From the NCBI GenBank assembly GCA_964016885.1, contig OZ024740.1:322710001-322774000 (forward strand): a DNA stretch of 64,000 nt. The letters run 5' to 3'. The notes under the pieces were generated by a model. The model was given only the letters and a program-made list of their open reading frames with translations. It did not search any database and was not told where the DNA came from. Numbering within the stretch: position 1 is the first letter of the stretch; each line of letters begins with the position of its first letter. The stretch comes from Eledone cirrhosa. Taxonomy: Eukaryota. Positions 7,178 to 56,700 of the stretch are shown here, in pieces. A program made the position numbers and the translations under genes.

Positions 7178-9713
7178 ATTAAGGAAGTATCGATGACAAA
7201 CAACGAGAAAGGTAAACAAACTTTATTCAGTTGTGGCTACAGAAGAAACCGAAATTATAAATCGCATTTCTCTTGGAGTTGCGAACTTAATAATGATTTA
7301 TTTAATTGTTATAAAATGGCAAAAAACAATCCCTCCATTGGCTATATGAACAGAATGAAGCCACACTGGGACGAAATGCACCCAGAGCTCAATTATTTCA
7401 CAGCGAAATAATTACGCCAACAAGCGACGTTTGTTGAGCGTAAAAACAAGATAAATATTATTAATTGTAAGTCCCCCACAACAAACATGGGATCAACAAC
7501 ACGTGCTACAGGTCGCCATGCTACTAGACTTCCTAGCAGCCATGTTGAACATTGCCTTGAAGCAACTATGCCTGTAAGAAACTTGACACCACCTGTACCA
7601 TCTAAGTCTACCTCGAATGCTGGGGAAAACACTATCGATAATAATAATAATCGAAGAAATAATAATAATAATCGAAGAAATTTGACACCACGTGTACCAT
7701 CCGAGTCTACCTCGACTGTTGTGGAAAATACTATCGATAATGATAATAATCCAGAGAGAAATTAATTCATGTATAAATATCTCTCTTGCTGAACGTATTA
7801 AAACGACAATATTTAATAAAAAACAAATAATGAAATATTACGTGTTATTGACGAAATAGGGGATGAATATTTACGACGGATAAAAACCCCAACATTTTGA
7901 CAAATCAACGCCTGTTTATATGCCTTAGCAATGACAGTGAAGCATTATCTTGGTGATAGCAGAGATATTAACAAGAACAAAACACCACCAAATATACCAT
8001 TATATATAACTAAAATAGAAAAAAAGATTGCTGACCTACGAAAAAACATAGGATATGTGACAATGCTCCTTACATGCAAACAAACACAAAAAACCCTCAC
8101 CCCTCACCAACAAAGAGTGGAAAATAAAATAGAGACGATGTTTGGTAACAGTAGAACCAGAACTCTTCAATATAAGCTGATCACCCTCAAATAAGAATTG
8201 AGAGCTGTTAGCGAATAACGCCGATACCTGAAGAAGGTAGACGAGAGAAAACTGCTTAATAAAAGATTCAGACAAAACCAAGCAACAGTCTATAGAGATA
8301 TGAAGAACAAAATAAGTGTCACTGAGGCCTCATCCCAGAAAGACATAGATTCTTTTTGGAGAAAAAATATGGGGTGAAAAGAAGAATTTCAACCAAGATG
8401 CAGTGTGGCTAAAAGAAATCCGAAAGAACTATTGCTCCTACACTACAACAAAAACATACGAAATAAGTGAGGGTACCCTTGAGACTGTGGTATGAAAACT
8501 CTAAGATAAGAAAACAAGAAAAAACCAGGAAGAGACATGATTGTCGGCTACTGGTACAAAAAAACTGATATTCTATCGGAGGTATCTTACTGACCTCTAC
8601 CAACAAGTTCTTAAGGGAGATACACTTATACCAGAATGGTTGACATTAGCACAAACATTACTGGTCCTCAAGAACAAAGACACCCACTTGACAAAAAACT
8701 ACCGACCATTGCATGCCAGAACCTGATGTATAAGATGTATACATCAGGAGCACGTCTCTCGAGCAAATCTATCTGCAAGAAACAGATAAGATCATTAGAG
8801 TTGGGAAGGAATTCCTCGAGAGATATTCCCTGTATGATAATCAAAAACTCACACCCAAGGAAGTCGCTCAGCAGTATCGCAGTGAATCCATGGGTGAAAA
8901 ACTGCATGCTTATCAGCAAAGGATCATGCATGGATATGTTGCCAGGAAGCTCCAGAGTGAGAGTAATATAAATAAGGAAAGTAGTCTATCTTGGACCAAC
9001 AACCGCTATATTGGCTCCCACTTTGAAAGATACGCTTTTGCAATCCAAGAACAGGAAATTAACACGAAATACCTGATTCACAAAAGAGATAGGGTTGCAG
9101 GCAAAACACCTAGATGTACATAATATGAAAGAGTACTAGTGCAATGTTCCAGTAAAAACCCCAATAAAATGCAGGCATAACAGACCAGATATTATGATAA
9201 GGGACAGGGAGAATAAAGCATGCACAGTAGTGGAAATTAGCTGCCCAGCAGATACCAATATAATATCAAAGATTAGCAAAAAGGAGAATATTTATGCAAA
9301 ACTGGTGAGAAATCTGCTGATACTCCACTCTGATTACACCTTCAGATTTATGCCTGTGATACAAATCTTGAGAAGCTAGGCTTCACAGGAACAGAAAGAA
9401 CACAACTAGTTAGGAAATTACAAGTACAATCCATTAATGGAACAGTAAAAATATGGAAAACATTCCAAAAATGTTGCATCTAATAACTGCATATACACAT
9501 GTACAGATGCAAAGCATATACACATGCACACATACGACTCAAAACATCCACATCCACACATGCAATAACATCCATATCTACACATGCATGCAGGCATGCA
9601 TACATAATCTACCTAGTTGATGTTGTGTAAATTCCAATGTGAGAGTCTTGTAACTATGTTAGAAACCGACTCTTTCTCTATTGGCAAAAAAATTGTGAAA
9701 TTATAAAACCAGA
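7178..9713 (+). mobile_element. RLE-type non-LTR retrotransposon (R4/Dong-like), copy 1, internally deleted
   Basis: Colinear with 27961-31216. Retains PGRD..GYWYKK, NYRP(I)ACQN, NRPDI and VEISCP. RT core and zinc knuckle are deleted. Flanked on both sides by (CATA)n. Confidence 0.9.
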
Positions 9714-11231: not shown

Positions 11232-11421
11232 ATAGGAAAAAGTTTAACTCCGACGGCAGAGCTCAAGCCGTTTCGACGGCTAGTCCAGAAATAGCCGTCG
11301 AAACGGCTTGAGCTCTGCCGTCGGGGTTAAAGTTTTTCCTATTACACACCCTACTACCCTACGTATCGAGTACTCTGGTGCCTTATGGTCCATCTGGTTC
11401 CTTACCACACTTCCTTCGTTA
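11232..11421 (+). mobile_element. Fold-back mini-element (PLE pseudo-LTR-like, inverted) in (TA)n
   Basis: About 51-bp inverted arms (11232-11282 and 11292-11342) plus an ~80-bp tail. Related copies at 19301, 25698 and 32281. Confidence 0.8.
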
Positions 11422-11652
11422 TATATCTATCTATATATATATACACTATGTATAGCAAACCGTGTCACTCTTCTTTCTTATTTATCATTACTCCAAGTGT
11501 AAACAACATAGAAATCACCGCGTACTAGCAGCACCACCATGGAAACGCCTTGTTGAGTCAAACTTAGCCAAGCGTTGATACAATCCACTACTCGGAGTAC
11601 CCTAACTGGACTACACCTAAGTGGACTACCTATAACAATAATCTGTTATTCC

Positions 11653-11708
<56 letters not shown>

Positions 11709-11871
11709 TTAAGTATACTATTTATGGTTATGCAAATACAAAAACCGTTTGTAGTTATATATATTTTTATAAACCCTAAATAGTGGTAGGCAGTAATATA
11801 TTACTACCTTATTACCAGTAAGTTAAATAGCTCAATGTAATAACATCAGATGATTTACAGAGCAGTTATAA

Positions 11872-11929
<58 letters not shown>

Positions 11930-13127: not shown

Positions 13128-13131
<4 letters not shown>

Positions 13132-13380
13132 AAGTTTGCAATTTTCAACTGTGAAAATTGTGAAAATTGTGAAAATTGTGAAAATTGTGAAAATTTCACA
13201 GTTGAAAATTGCAAACTTGACTGTCACCACAGAATATGAACCTGAAGATTGCGAAAGCATGAGTACTTGTTCATTTAACATTTAACATTCTACCATACTA
13301 TTTCATTATAATAACATTATAATTTTAAAGGATTGTAAATAAAACGAGTAAATCAGACAAAGTTGGAATTCCTTTTATTA
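13128..13380 (+). mobile_element. Fold-back mini-element with an HHR-like motif in its tail
   Basis: Arms AGTCAAGTTTGCAATTTTCAACTGTGAAA and its inverse enclose (TGTGAAAAT)x5; follows (TA)n. Confidence 0.75.
13236..13274 (+). ncRNA. Stem-II-less hammerhead-like motif
   Basis: AUGAAC-CUGAAGA-UUGC-GAAA-G...C-UU-GUUCAU, with a 6-bp stem I and intact core boxes. Confidence 0.6.
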
Positions 13381-13440
13381 ATATAATCTTCTATACACAA
13401 TCATACACACACGTGTATATTTATATATATATATATATAT

Positions 13441-14280
13441 ATTAGAATGATCGAGTATCGAAAAATCGGCGCACGAGTTCACGATAAACAAAATTCGAAA
13501 TGAGCGGCAGAGGGCTCAATAATTCAGATGAATCAGAGCTATAACTATCGTTAAAATACCGTCACACATAGAACAAGTCTAAAATCAACCATACGATAAA
13601 AAATCGATAATAGAAGATTCGGGACAATCAGATAAAAAATATCAATAAAACAATACATCAATAATTTAAATGAATGTAAAATCATACCCGGACCCACTAG
13701 AAAGGTGTTAAATCTAGCTTCTTGGGTTTCTGTAAATCCTTAGACTGTACTCTATCAGCTCACATATAAATATATAAGACTTCTAGAGTAAGCGGACTGG
13801 AAGTTTACTTCTTCAACGAGCTTCGTCCTAGCGGATAAGAGGCTAACTACAAGCAAAATACGCACATGGAATCCGGCAAGGGAGATAACCTCTACATCCG
13901 CGAAAACTATTCGAGGAAATGTGGAAATACACATATCGAATAAAAGTGCTCAATAGACATGTTAAAATAAAACAGGAGCTATTCATCACTCAATAGAATC
14001 GACAAAAAATGAGCAATAAAATTAACTGGTGGATAGCTATGTCCAGAGCTAAAAATATTAGAATGATCGAGTATCGAAAAATCGGTGCACGAGTTCACGA
14101 TAAACAAAATTCGAAATGAGCGGCAGAGGGCTCAATAATTCAGATGAATCAGAGCTATAACTATCGTTAAAATACCGTCACACATAGAACAAGTCTAAAA
14201 TCAACCATACGATAAAAAATCGATAATAGAAGATTCGGGACAATCAGATAAAAAATATCAATAAAACAATACATCAATAA

Positions 14281-19456: not shown

Positions 19457-19596
19457 TAGAAGGGGTATTTAATTTGTTGGAAATCCGACAAATATAAATA
19501 TAAATGTGTATAACTGATTTAGAGCACTCAACAGTAGCCTGGAGTAAATATTCAATGATATTAAATAAATGGAAACTATATTTATAAAACCATATT

Positions 19597-24270: not shown

Positions 24271-24350
24271 ATGGTGGCTGCCAACTCGTTTTCGAGTACG
24301 GCCACTACTTTATATCCATGTAGGAGAACCCCTACCGATGCGCTGAACGA
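24271..24350 (-). mobile_element. 5'-truncated 80-bp copy of the same element
   Basis: Matches 23597-23676. Keeping only this end supports the minus-strand orientation. Confidence 0.85.
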
Positions 24351-24494
24351 TATACATACATATATACATACATACATATATATATATATAGTCTGGAACT
24401 AACTGTTGAAACGGATTTTTATAATATAACCATTCTCTACGACCCCAAATATCGAGTACTCTGTTGAGTAATGGTGTAACTAGTATTAAACTGG

Positions 24495-26885: not shown

Positions 26886-27050
26886 GTCTGCGGTGCTGAG
26901 ACCGAGGAGACCACAAATCATGGGAGTCCTCGATGCATGGGGATATGCAGAGTGGGTATAGAAATATATAAAATCGTCAAGCGGAAACTATTTAGCACTG
27001 CGGTCGGGATTTTACTTCTCTCTCTCGTTCTCTTTCCCTCTCGCTCCCTC

Positions 27051-27960: not shown

Positions 27961-30900
27961 ATTAAGGAAGTACCAGAGAAAAACAACGAGAAAGGTAAAC
28001 AAAATTTATTCAGTTGTAGTTACAGAAGAAACCGAAATTATAAATCGCATTTCTCTTGGAGTTGCGAACTTAATGATTTATTTAATTGTTATAAAATGGC
28101 AAAAAATAATTCCTCCATTGGCTATATGAACAGAATGAAGCTTCACTGGGACGAAATACACCCAGAGCTAAATCACTTCACAGCGCAACAATTACGCCAA
28201 CAAGCGACGTTTGTTGAACGTAAAAATAAGATAAATATTATTAATTGTAAGTCCCCCACAATAAACATGGGATCAACAACACGTGCTACAGGTTGCCATG
28301 CAACTACACTTCCTAGCAGCCAGGTCGAACAGTGCCTTGAAACAACTATGCCTGTAAGAAACTTGACACCACGTGTACCCTCTAAGTCTACCTCGAATGC
28401 TGGGGAAAACACTATCGATAATAATAATAATCGAAGAAATAATAATAATAATCGAAGAAATTTAACACCACGTGTATAAACAATTGAAACATTTCTCTTG
28501 CTGAACGTATTAAAACAACAATATTTAATAAAAAACCAACTAATGAAATATTACGTGTTATTGACGAAATAGGGGATGAATATTTACGACGGATAAAAAC
28601 CCCAACATTTTGGCAAATCAACGCCTGTTTATATGCCTTAGCAATGCCAGTGAAGCATTATCTTGGTGATAGCAGAGATATTAACAAGGACAAAACACCA
28701 CCAAAAATACCATTATATATAACTAAAATAGAAAAAAAGATTGCTGACCTACGAAAAACAATAGGATATGTGACAATGCTCCTTACATGCAAACAAACAC
28801 AAAAAACCTCACTCCTCACCAACAAAGAGTGAAAAATAAAATAGAGATGTTTGGTAACTGTAGAACCAGAACTCTTCAATATAAGCTGATCACCCTCAAA
28901 TAAGAATTGAGAGCTGTTAGCGAATAACGCCGATACCTGAAGAAGGTAGATGAAAGAAAAGGGCTTAATAAAAGATTCAGACGAAACCAAACATCAGTGT
29001 CACTGAACAAGCAGCTGGAAAGAAAGGTGTTTGGAGATGTGCTGAACAACTCCTAATCAACAAAACTGCGATGTCGGAGGTGCGACAACTTAGGAGGAAT
29101 ATGGCTACAGTCTGGCTGGACTACAGGAAAGCTTTCAATTCTGTTCCCTACTCTTGGATGATAGAGGCCCTCCAGCTTGCTAAAGTCTCAGACATTATTA
29201 TCAGAGCCATAGAGAAGCTGTCTTCTTCTTGGGCTACTATCCTAAAGTTAAAGACAGAGAAGGAGGACTCTATTTTCACTGATAAAATAAAATATCGCAG
29301 TGGTATGTTTCAGGGAGACAGTCTCTCTGTGATATTATTCATCCTGTCATTAAACCCCTTGTCCTTTCTGCTCAAGAAATGTGAAGGATACATCATTGGC
29401 TCACAGGAGGACAGAAAACGAACCTAACCCATAATTTCTTTGTGGATGATCTGAAACTCTATGCCATGAAAATGGATGGGATGAAGAAAAATCTTGACTT
29501 GGTTACAACGTTCTCAAAGGATATAGGAATGGAGTTTGGCCAAGATAAATGCTCATGTATGACAGTAAAGCGGAGAAAAACAACAACCCAATCTAGCAAC
29601 ATTGTCATCAATGGCCTAACTGTTTCACCGATATCTGATGCGGACTGCTACAGATACCTGGGGATAGATGAGAACATATCCTATAATGGTATCTGTAATA
29701 AGGAACGCGTAACCAGGGAATACTGCACCCGATTAAGAAAGATTTAGTCATCGGAACTCTCTGCGCAAAACAAAACAGTGGCTCACAATGTGTTTGCTGT
29801 GCCTGTCCTAACACTAACGTTTAGAATACTCAATTGGACGATAGACGAAATCCGAGCAGTTGATGTTAGAACTCGAAAAATACTAAACAACACAGGAAAC
29901 TTCCACATCAACAGTGACATAGACCGCCTTTACTTGAAACGTAAGCAGGGAGGCAGAGGCCTAACATCAGTCCAGACAGCATTTGAATGTCGCATCATAT
30001 CCCTCCGACAACATCTACGAACCTCGAAGCGTAGGAGCCCGTCTCTCGAGCAAATCTATCTGCATGAAACAGATAAGATCATGAGAGTTGGGAAGGAACT
30101 CCTCGAGAGATATTCCCTGTATGATAATCAAAAACTCACACCCAGGGAAGTCGCTCAGCAGTATCGCAGTGACTCCATGGATGAAAAACTGCATGCCTAT
30201 TAGCAAAAAATCATGCATGGATATGTTGCCAGGAAGCTCCAGAGTGAGAGTAATATAGATAAGGAAAGTAGTCTATCTTGGACCAACAACCGCTATATTG
30301 GCTCCCACTTTGAAGGAGACGCTTTTGCTATCCAAGAACAGGAAATTAACACGAAATACCCGATTCACAAAAGAGATAGGGTTGCAGGCAAAACACCTAG
30401 ATGTGATAACAAGTGCAGACTCTGCAGAATTAACATCGAAGATGTCACCCATGTCATCAGCAGCTGTCCAAAGATGTCATCGCGGTACTATCTACCTATG
30501 AGGCATGATGTAGTGGCCAAAACACTGTACAATGTAATCCATAGAAAAGATAGCCCCGATAATAAACACATTAAAAGCTACAGCAATGTGGAAGACATCC
30601 ATGTACATAATATGAAAGAGTACTGGTGGAATGTTCCAGTAAAAACCCCAATAAAATGCAGGCATAACAGACCAGATATTATGATATGGGACAGGGAGAA
30701 GAAAGCATGCACAATAGTGTAAATTAGTTGCCCAGCAGATGCCAATATAATATCAAAATTTAGCGAAAAGTAGAATATTTATGCAGAACTGATGAGAAAT
30801 CTGCAGATACTCCACCCTGATTACACCTTCAGATTTATGCCTGTGATTATTGAGGCACTGGGGTATGTTAGTAATTGCCTCAATACAAATCTTGAGAAGC

Positions 30901-32280: not shown

Positions 32281-32482
32281 GGGAAAAGAGTTAGGGCCCC
32301 GATGGCTGAGCCCCGGCCGTTTCGACAGCTAGATCCCAACGCTCGGATCTAGCTGTCGAAACGGCCGGGGCTCAGCCGTCGGGGTCCTAACTCTTTTCCC
32401 TATTACCCACTCTACTACCCTAAGTATCGAGTACTCTAGTGCGTTATGGTCCACCTGGTATCTTACCACACCTTCTTTGTTT
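32281..32482 (+). mobile_element. Fold-back mini-element, same family as 11232
   Basis: 56-bp arms around loop CAACGCTC, with a homologous tail; TA-flanked. Confidence 0.85.
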
Positions 32483-53735: not shown

Positions 53736-56700
53736 ACCTATGACGATTTGATATAGAGTCACCTATGACGATTTGATAATCAGAGAACTTAGAAAAAGCT
53801 ACAAAAAAAAACTACACGGGCCAACCTGGATTTAATCAACACGGAGGCCAATAGCGTCATGACTAAACTGGGTATTGAAGGTAAAACCGAACCCTTCTAT
53901 CCTAGAACTCCGAGGATTTTGTTGAAAGACCACAAATTAAACTTTAAATCATCAAGACCTGTCAGGCTGATAGCCCCTTCGAAGTCGCACATAGGAATCG
54001 TGAGTAAAAACATCCTTGATAAAATAATCCCCACTCTAGTTAGGAGATCGAAGCTTAAATTATGGCCAGGAACTAGTGAGGTAATTAACTGGTTTGAGAA
54101 ATCGCAGAATAAGAATAGCACTAAGTTTATACAGTTCGATATCTCTAATTACTACTCTTCGATCTCTCCAACTCTTCTAGGTAGGGCCCTAAACTTTGCT
54201 AGCTTACACACCGACCTTACATCTGAAGAAATTAACATTATTCTCCTAGCTAGGAAAACCTTAACTGAGTTCAACGGTGACTTGTAAACCAGGAAGGATT
54301 GGCCGGACAATTTCGACATCACCATGGGATCCACGGACTCGGCCCAGGTGACGGATCTGGTGGGCCTTTACTTCCCCGACTGTCTCGGAGTGGAAATGCC
54401 TCACTTGGGAGGTGGCGCTTACCGTGACGACGTTTTGTTCACTGTGTCGTTCCATAATAATAGTATGGTAGAGAGGGTGAGGAAAAGACTAAGCAAATTC
54501 TTCAAGAACGTAGACCTAAGTATAGTATTTGAAGAGAACTTAAAGATAGTTAATTTTCTAGATGTTACACTTAACCCCAATTCAGGACTCTTCCAACCCT
54601 ACCACAAACCCAACGAGAATTTAAACTATGTCAACGCAAAATCGAACCACCCTAGAATAGTCACTAACGGTATTACCAAAAGCGTCTCTAGTAGAATTTC
54701 AGGACTATCTTCCAATGAAGATACCTTTAATAGGATTTCGAATTACTATAATAGCGCCCTGGAACGCGCGGGGCATAGTGAGAGAATATCATTCAAACGT
54801 CCATTAAATAGTAGTAGCAACATTGCCTGCGATAGCTTAGGCCAAAATAGTGACACTTTAGTTAACAGCAGGCGGGATACGAGGGAGGATCAATATAGAC
54901 TTCATGTTGTATTGCCTCCTAGTCCCAATGTTGATGGTACCAATGGAAACAATCACCCAGGTACTAACACGGGGTCTGAGCACCGTAATGCCAGCGGAAA
55001 CTCTAATTGTAACCTTAATTGTAGAACTGATAAAACAACTGTTGAACGTAAAATGGAACGAGGGTCGAGTAAAGGGAATAGGGATAAATGTAGTAGACGC
55101 ATAGTGGATATAACCCCGGATATCGAGGGTAATCCCAATGGCTGCACGGAGGGTACACCGCCCCGGAGACTTGGGACGATTCCGAACACAATCGGGACAC
55201 CCAGGACACCATCGACCCACAGGCAGTTTTCAGTTATAATAGACCAGTAGCTACTAAGGAGACAGGTAACTCTAATATAGTTAGTAAAAACAAGAGGCAT
55301 CGGACCAGAAAAATCCTGTAGTATAACCCCCTTACTCCACTGGCCTGACCACTAGTATAGCTAAGCTTTTCTTTAGGGCCTTAGACAAATGCTTCCCTAG
55401 ATCACACAGATACTATAAAATATTCAATAGGAATACCATCAAGCAGTCCTACTCCACAACCAGTAACATAGCTCAGAATATAGCTAAGATGAATTTTAGT
55501 AGAAATAGGACAGCCCAAGGGGGGGGGGGGTACTAGACATGGCAGAACTAATGGCAGCTCTATGGATGAACGGACTCATACACGTGAGGCGAGTCGGGTC
55601 ACCTCAACCCCTGGGAACTTACCCATAGAGCAGACAAGAACTAAGACCCGACCCCAAAGGTACCGTGGTTCCTCTGGAACTACCCAGGTCGATAACAGAA
55701 ATGTAATTGCAGGAACATCGCCACTTACCCCATGGCTGGGAAATGCCTCACCAAAAATATAGTCTACGACTCTAAGGTATCCATTCTTGATAGAACCTTC
55801 AGGTATGTTGGGACAACTGCCACTGAATTTAAGGATTGATGGTATAATCACAGCTATACCATTAATAGATTAGATAAAAAAAATAGCACGGCGCTTTCTG
55901 AATTAGTCTGGAAGCTTAAACAACAGAATTTAGAGCACTCCTTATCCTGGTCCATAATTTGCTCAGCCCAGCCTTATAACGGCAGCACTGGCGTCTGTAA
56001 TTTATGTATAGCTGAAACCTTTAATATTATTAGAGGCGGCCCCCTATTAATTAATAGGGGAGCGGATTTTTTCAGCAACTGCCAACATAGAACCTCGAAA
56101 ACCTTCCGCAGGATTTTTGGAAAGTAACCTACCACTAACTCCTCCCTCTCTATTTTAGCCATAGAGTTCTCTCAATAAACAGACAATCACACACTCAGGT
56201 AGTTAGACAGTTAAGATCGTTTGCGCACTTACAAACGGTAATCGGCCTGTTTTCACAGAGTTCTCACAGCTGAGTGCACTTTAGAATACCTAGTTAGTAA
56301 ATAGTTAGAATGATTACACACTCAGAATACCTAGTTAGTAAATAGTTAAAATGATTACACACTCAGGCAAGACCGATTACGCGCATTTACCTTTACTTTA
56401 AGATACCCTAACCATTGAGTTCTCTCGGTTGGGATATAGCTAGACGTATTGCACACTCAGTTAGGACCAATTACGCTCTCTATACATAACTCTACACACA
56501 GTACCCGTTTTCTTTAGACATTGAGTTCCCACAGTTATGACTGTTCACGTTCCTACCGATTGAACACTACAATAGGTTTTGATTCGTGATCATCTAACTA
56601 TGGAGTGCTCACGGTTACGGATTGAACAATAATACTTACACACCATTAATGGGCCTACACACATCCTATGAGTTTTGCTATCCTTTGTTATTTTATTTTA

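Follow-up and report, generated by a model that had tools for sequence, protein, structure and literature searches.

Insertions and Hairpin Copies in the 64-kb Window

The window, by which we mean the whole 64-kb stretch of DNA analyzed, carries short mirrored and (TA)n-associated insertions in which a small bulged hairpin recurs (Table 1). The three strings from which a preliminary description had drawn a covarying stem-loop are present where it placed them, at 11347–11380, 32408–32441, and about 24429–24475. The first lies in a mirrored insertion whose forward arm holds the stem II 3′ strand, GAAA (11300–03), stem III, and the stem I 3′ strand of a hammerhead with a predicted cut after 11322, and whose tail does not extend into hairpin 2 itself. 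This copy is decayed, since the private changes it carries at 11350 and 11362 disrupt one pair each, and with both changes it folds otherwise; the minimum-energy fold of 32408–32441 is the bulged hairpin 1 structure, as predicted. The third string, which had been taken for a separate family, belongs to a subfamily of the same element and has its hammerhead stem III in common with the other copies.

Table 1. Hairpins, arms, and tails in the 64-kb window (PLE, Penelope-like element).
Feature	Position	Strand	Basis or extent
Bulged hairpin 1, decayed copy	11348..11376	+	
Lower stem of this copy	11348-51/11368-71	+	
Upper stem of this copy	11352-55/11362-65	+	
2-nt bulge of this copy	11366-67	+	
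Conserved 3′ single strand of this copy	11372-76	+	
One-sided PLE "tail," 80 nt	11340..11419	+	From UA before hairpin 1 to UA before hairpin 2
Forward arm, 3′ half of type I hammerhead	11283..11339	+	
Inverted arm	11235..11282	-	Stops at junction before hairpin 1, adjoins (TA)n
Bulged hairpin 1, intact copy	32409..32437	+	Minimum-energy fold
Second mirrored insertion, same family as 11235..11419	32281..32480	+	Has inverted arm, half of the hammerhead, and tail (32401-32480)
Decayed bulged hairpin 1, subfamily B	24434..24462	+	In truncated insertion
Bulged hairpin in another (TA)n-associated family	26916..26965	-	Covariance model match, E 9e-5
Bulged hairpin in another hammerhead-bearing family	19514..19557	-	Covariance model match, E 0.003

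Weaker model matches (E 0.1–0.2) fall in other (TA)n-flanked inserts at 13502–13547, 14118–14163, and 11818–11875, all on the minus strand, the first two inserts being near-identical to each other. A neighboring insertion of a different family (11480–11632, plus strand) has a 160-nt tail with a long-loop version of the hairpin near its start and a second, GAGUAC hairpin further on.

Within the window alone the 13-mer of the motif has three matches, all exact, and when two mismatches are allowed 26 of 100 shuffles reach three. Across the 3.0-Gb genome, the pattern of the preliminary description has 4,213 matches and a looser pattern 60,056, against none for the reversed patterns that served as controls for both. 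Whole-window Rfam scanning and repeat finding were dominated by microsatellites.

A Covarying Hairpin With a Conserved Bulge

The motif is real, but it had been wrongly folded. As originally drawn, the fold pairs 57% of alignment cells vs. 56% in shuffles, and 163 of 500 shuffles equal or exceed it. The C-G to U-A difference between the copies at 11347 and 32408, earlier read as compensatory, reflects one single-side transition in each, both private changes of U·G: of 162 distinct copies, from loci mostly retrieved with the motif patterns, 145 have U·G at these positions, 8 have U-A, 4 have A·G, 3 have C-G, and 2 have U·U, and 15 of 16 copies from 1 Mb of regularly spaced genome have U·G as well.

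The fold that the data support is RCUC-(stem-loop)-UH-GAGY-ACUNU, in which RCUC is followed by a stem of at least three pairs capped by a variable loop, then by two bulged nucleotides of which the first is U, by GAGY, and by a single-stranded ACUNU. RNAalifold found it unaided in an alignment without gaps that comprised the three window copies, a full-length genomic unit (L151), and all ten instances with a 14-nt insert, with 92% of cells paired and a covariation score of 0.547 vs. 0.219 (0 of 500 shuffles as high). As a check against circularity, instances were also anchored by sequence alone in related metagenome loci, where the anchors were present in 41 of 50 loci, compared with 26 in antisense (as expected for a hairpin) and 6 in an ORF control. 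After 18 ambiguous instances were left out, the three pairs above the bulge were formed in 52, 38, and 39 of the 55 unambiguous ones vs. 39.7, 22.5, and 23.4 expected. The fourth pair was at chance, as was pairing between slid partners, whose mutual information was nominally raised because the instances are related; the shuffle tests take no account of relatedness among copies.

A covariance model gave 116 matches at E ≤ 1 in 78 such metagenome loci, 106 of them on the sense strand, and matched in 57 of the 78. The alignment fitted to this model is 95% paired. The bulged base is U in 104 of 105 rows, the G and A that follow the bulge are present in 103 and 105 rows, and the pair before it forms in 101 of 102. 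G·U exceeded A·C by 15 to 4 in this alignment, which is biased in that respect, and by only 7 to 5 with the unbiased anchors, so the wobble pairs support the RNA sense strand weakly. The stability of single copies is ordinary (z +0.5 to −1.1).

Lack of covariation, or conservation no better than in the rest of the pLTR, had been named as grounds for dismissing the motif. Covariation proved significant, but for a fold other than the one first drawn, and non-anchor positions are 84–95% conserved vs. a flank mean of 38%. No Rfam family matched at its gathering score, all matches being sub-threshold and unrelated. The description of a conserved RNA element thus holds insofar as the motif is conserved, covarying, located in PLE tails, and absent from Rfam, and fails for the structure as drawn. 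The motif is a single bulged hairpin and lacks a hammerhead core (CUGANGA and GAAA around three stems).

Two other ideas were tried and discarded. A telomere template (CCCUAA) in the loop does not fit a position that is T in 86, C in 34, A in 25, and G in 1 of 146 instances, in a loop that is not conserved. Coding constraint was rejected because, although one frame can be read across the L151 tail, a stop codon directly follows the motif in subfamily B and frequent variants change the amino acid.

The Host Is a Hydra-Clade Penelope-Like Element

L151 represents a full unit, with direct repeats 3,096 bp apart flanking a broken ORF with reverse transcriptase (RT) motifs and a weak GIY-YIG match (E 0.022). 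Homologues of its protein are about 700 aa long. The L151 protein has DKT, RWR, and CxCX5C, and DKT, an RWK-type motif, and CxCX5C occur in 96, 88, and 90 of 99 full-length homologues, respectively; DKT, RWK, CxCX5C, and insertion into (TA)n are described as traits of the Hydra clade (PMC8557442). By eye, the protein resembles those of Hydra-1_Obim and Hydra-1_Ajap. On this sequence evidence the host is assigned to the Hydra clade, as a Penelope-like element with a C-terminal endonuclease (EN+).

The element's type I hammerhead lies upstream of the motif and has a U3-A8 core variant, of a kind described for Schistosoma (PMC4209133). A search for canonical CUGANGA upstream of the motif gave 46 inconsistent matches, the actual core being U3-A8, and in 17 of 20 metagenome loci a hammerhead core lies at most 160 nt from the motif. 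The motif itself is found in the 5′ UTR, downstream of the hammerhead and upstream of the start codon, usually in two copies. In the high-copy window family the hammerhead (L151:3921–4016; window 11283–11339) combines the U3-A8 core with a long stem II insert, and other subfamilies have UUGAAAA and UUGAAGA cores.

The inner hairpin had also been said to recur in a minimal hammerhead at 13236. That hammerhead lacks two A's of its GAAA core through a 2-nt deletion, the core is intact in two sister arms (locus L236), and the covariance model has no match at 13236 at E ≤ 10. It lies in a mirrored insertion at 13130–13440 (plus strand) with an array of TGTGAAAAT at its center, whose family has a tail in which the motif descriptor detects no hairpin.

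Twin Hairpins Across Related Elements

Insertions having both an inverted arm and a tail were catalogued independently of the motif, which yielded 150 tails in 67 clusters, many of them junk. A motif descriptor, chosen after seeing these data, occurred in 12 of the 67 clusters in sense and none in antisense, and in 10 of the 67 representatives vs. 0.03 in shuffles. In a 400-kb genomic hold-out it was found in 3 of 26 clusters, all previously known, and in none of 20 new clusters, many of which were microsatellite or mis-delimited. The 78 related metagenome loci provided a stronger hold-out, from which 50 were picked for a matched protein N-terminus and upstream sequence; the unchanged, pre-fixed descriptor occurred in 23 of these, compared with 0 in antisense, 2 in the ORF control, and 0.54 in shuffles.

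The hairpin usually occurs as a pair. Model matches in the metagenome loci included 35 tandem spacings of 55–83 nt, with hairpin 2 located 34–76 nt before the start codon. In the window family a 78-nt spacing is kept by 14 of 15 copies that read through, 12 of which extend into the beginning of the ORF. Two variant elements (L291 and L292) have a U-A closing pair (UCUC/GAGA) in hairpins 1 and 2 alike, the two copies having changed in concert. Inspected by eye, the published Hydra-1_Ajap consensus begins with two copies of the hairpin and that of Hydra-2_Amil ends with one; the 5′ end of the Hydra-1_Obim consensus showed no clear motif. A search for a second hairpin after the tail of family D gave one chance-like match, and no relative was found in viral contigs.

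Insertion Junctions Lie Just Upstream of Each Hairpin

When all retrieved copies were mapped on L151, 203 of 268 alignment ends adjoined (TA)n, and these fell into two peaks, one L151 position accounting for 92 and another for 84 (together 176 of 203). Allowing for TA microhomology, the peaks lie 5–8 nt before hairpin 1 and 3–7 nt before hairpin 2. Insertions therefore end at two fixed sites that bound the tail, as in RT initiation of the kind described for PAc, the Poseidon protein of Anolis carolinensis (PMC11167929), and the 80-nt tail equals the hairpin spacing of 78 plus 2.

Among 101 head-to-head insertions, 78 had one arm of each class (1+2), one was 1+1, one was 2+2, and 21 had an unclassified end; among those from loci retrieved without a tail pattern, 53 of 66 were 1+2. 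Of 15 metagenome junctions that are not contig ends, 11 lie 0–6 nt before a hairpin, with 1.1 expected, and four (L268, L275, L285, and L313) are off-pattern. Loose (TA)n ends were seen at the same two places in contigs of runs X1 and X2, which come from one sample, are not independent, and are possibly the assembly source.

A Candidate Reverse-Transcription Start Signal

The motif is hairpin 1 of a conserved 5′-UTR pair, and we propose that each member of the pair binds the RT-endonuclease and sets the start of reverse transcription at the U/A stretch 3–8 nt to its 5′ side, a reading to which we give a probability of about two in three. Each hairpin would anchor one RT-EN copy and position internal initiation, with the nicked (TA)n target strand pairing with the UA just upstream of the hairpin and priming cDNA internally. 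With one enzyme copy on each hairpin, each of the two opposite target strands would serve as a primer, and the resulting pair of cDNAs would then join head to head, leaving one arm with hairpin 1 and the spacer (the "tail") and the other arm without either. If each hairpin positions initiation in this way, PLE tail length would simply be the hairpin spacing. The dimer step is modeled by analogy solely on PAc (PMC11167929), which is described as nicking both strands of AT-rich DNA, as a predicted dimer, and as initiating internally at two sites bounding the tail in a manner that requires RNA 3′ of those sites. Of the functions first suggested for the motif, an RT-recognition or processing signal is supported, and a diverged hammerhead derivative is not.

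The junction positions fit internal initiation and RNA cleavage at the same place equally. The hairpins might thus guide a cut by an element protein or host nuclease a few bases upstream, giving two RNA 3′ ends for ordinary 3′-end priming. This would account for the same junction peaks, and the ends of PAc RNA-seq reads reported at both start sites (PMC11167929) agree with it. We nonetheless consider such processing unlikely, as PAc in vitro starts internally on RNA that has not been cut and requires sequence 3′ of the start sites (PMC11167929), two differently cut RNAs would be needed each time to give the 1+2 combination found in 78 of the 80 insertions that could be classified, and a cut would also strip the signal from the template.

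The hairpin could instead act as DNA, in single-stranded cDNA or in the pLTR, and be read by the GIY-YIG endonuclease, which would trim the adjacent intermediate. Recognition by the D. virilis endonuclease required the tail (cited in PMC11167929), the tail has been ascribed to EN-mediated resolution (PMC8557442), and the wobble direction with unbiased anchors is nearly even. Arms that end before hairpin 1, however, are always free of hairpins, and genomic matches for hairpin 2 are about 100-fold fewer than for hairpin 1 (473 vs. 60,056, with patterns that are not strictly comparable); with these observations, and the G·U excess in the biased model-fitted alignment, we regard the DNA-level reading as very unlikely. 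Translational or packaging control, in which the protein binds its own 5′ UTR (cis-preference or autoregulation) and junctions merely follow its seat, is suggested by the placement of hairpin 2 shortly before the start codon and is compatible with the initiation model as a second role. As the sole function it has a slim chance at best, since it does not in itself lead one to expect that elements whose proteins are about 45% identical would share a fixed 0–8 nt offset at each hairpin.

A self-cleaving ribozyme or diverged hammerhead is highly improbable. The bulge and single-stranded 3′ nucleotides are conserved and the host element uses ribozymes, but the motif has about 25 nt with a freely varying loop, has no hammerhead core or Rfam ribozyme match, and accompanies a separate hammerhead upstream; the likeness at 13236 is a deletion artifact. 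Least credible is the absence of any function, since shared ancestry of repeat copies would explain the three window copies taken alone and is already contradicted by the covariation, the duplication, and the position retained across elements whose flanks are at background level.

Comparison With Known Systems

In addition to the protein traits given above, the host shares with the Hydra clade as described (PMC8557442) an RT with a C-terminal GIY-YIG domain, RW(K/R) and a CxCX5C linker, a pLTR hammerhead, the (TA)n target, an inverted arm, and an optional tail, and the hairpin is present in two published consensus sequences of the clade. It departs from that description in that the window family's tail is 80 nt rather than 30–40 nt and its hammerhead has the U3-A8 core variant. 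Poseidon PAc, as reported, is alike in having two tail-bounding initiation sites, an AT-rich target, required 3′ RNA, and a predicted dimer, but it starts inside an AC-rich stem-loop within the ORF, whereas the Hydra element has two homologous 5′-UTR hairpins, one per site (PMC11167929). By eye, the PAc stretch given in Fig. S1 of that paper contains no RCUC/UNGAGY motif.

The bulge invites comparison with 7SK ASM3 and HIV TAR as described in PMC6189040, which likewise have a pyrimidine bulge whose first base is U, preceded by a paired base and followed by G-C and A-U pairs; in 7SK the U40U41 bulge forms a U40:A43-U66 triple. In our motif the arrangement is permuted, with the loop on the opposite side of the bulge, the pre-bulge base is more often G than A, and a conserved 3′ ACUNU is present in addition. 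The sequence pattern of arginine-sandwich bulges is matched in the model-fitted alignment, and we treat the likeness as analogy, not homology. By that analogy we weakly infer that the invariant bulged U may form a U·A-U triple and create an arginine-sandwich pocket resembling that of the 7SK UU bulge.

In other systems, structures at LINE/R2 RNA 3′ ends and the hepadnaviral epsilon stem-loop are recognized by the element's own RT and set the start of cDNA. The Hydra hairpins differ from these in being internal, duplicated, and downstream of the copied region, and so are left out of most insertions.

A bolder version of the initiation model, which we offer tentatively and rate below even odds, is that the arginine-sandwich-like twin hairpin serves as the reverse-transcription promoter of a telomerase-related enzyme, a Hydra RT-EN dimer gripping both hairpins of a single RNA and copying internally from both nicked strands simultaneously. 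If true, this arrangement would account jointly for the PLE tail and for the mirroring of insertions, and the hairpin, at 25 nt, would act as a portable tag by which any RNA upstream of it becomes a template for (TA)n insertion.

Searches of published papers returned no description of the motif. The main text of PMC8557442 lacks both "hairpin" and "stem-loop" and its supplement lacks "hairpin," a term search of PMC3846280 did not find the motif, and it was not found in the pLTR passages of PMC6765202 or in the searched part of bioRxiv 10.64898/2026.07.22.740005. The motif is thus apparently a so far undescribed cis-acting element of a known retroelement clade. Penelope-like elements are the closest retroelement relatives of telomerase RT, and what is at issue is the choice of template and start site. 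The one-sided tail has previously lacked a sequence-level cause, and one 25-nt covarying hairpin per start site would offer one. The hairpin also permits exact mutants in the in vitro system that exists for PAc, and provides a marker for the boundaries of Hydra elements and for non-autonomous passengers.

Other Retroelement Sequences

The window contains a decayed ORF of another Hydra-like element at 53793–56130 (plus strand), with long insertions between the RT and endonuclease regions, and a broken RVT_1 reverse transcriptase of another retroelement at 28972–29747 (plus strand), with a related copy near 8200–9150. A short insert at 24271–24377, seen also in locus L013, contains an ACUCG/CGAGU hairpin that lacks a bulge and precedes AC; this hairpin may be a reduced version of the bulged motif. 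Elsewhere in the genome, two tandem arrays of four units spaced about 3.53 kb apart and containing hairpin 2 (G000:C1:91476591–91487241 and C1:437200369–437210985) are probably full-length multimers of the element.
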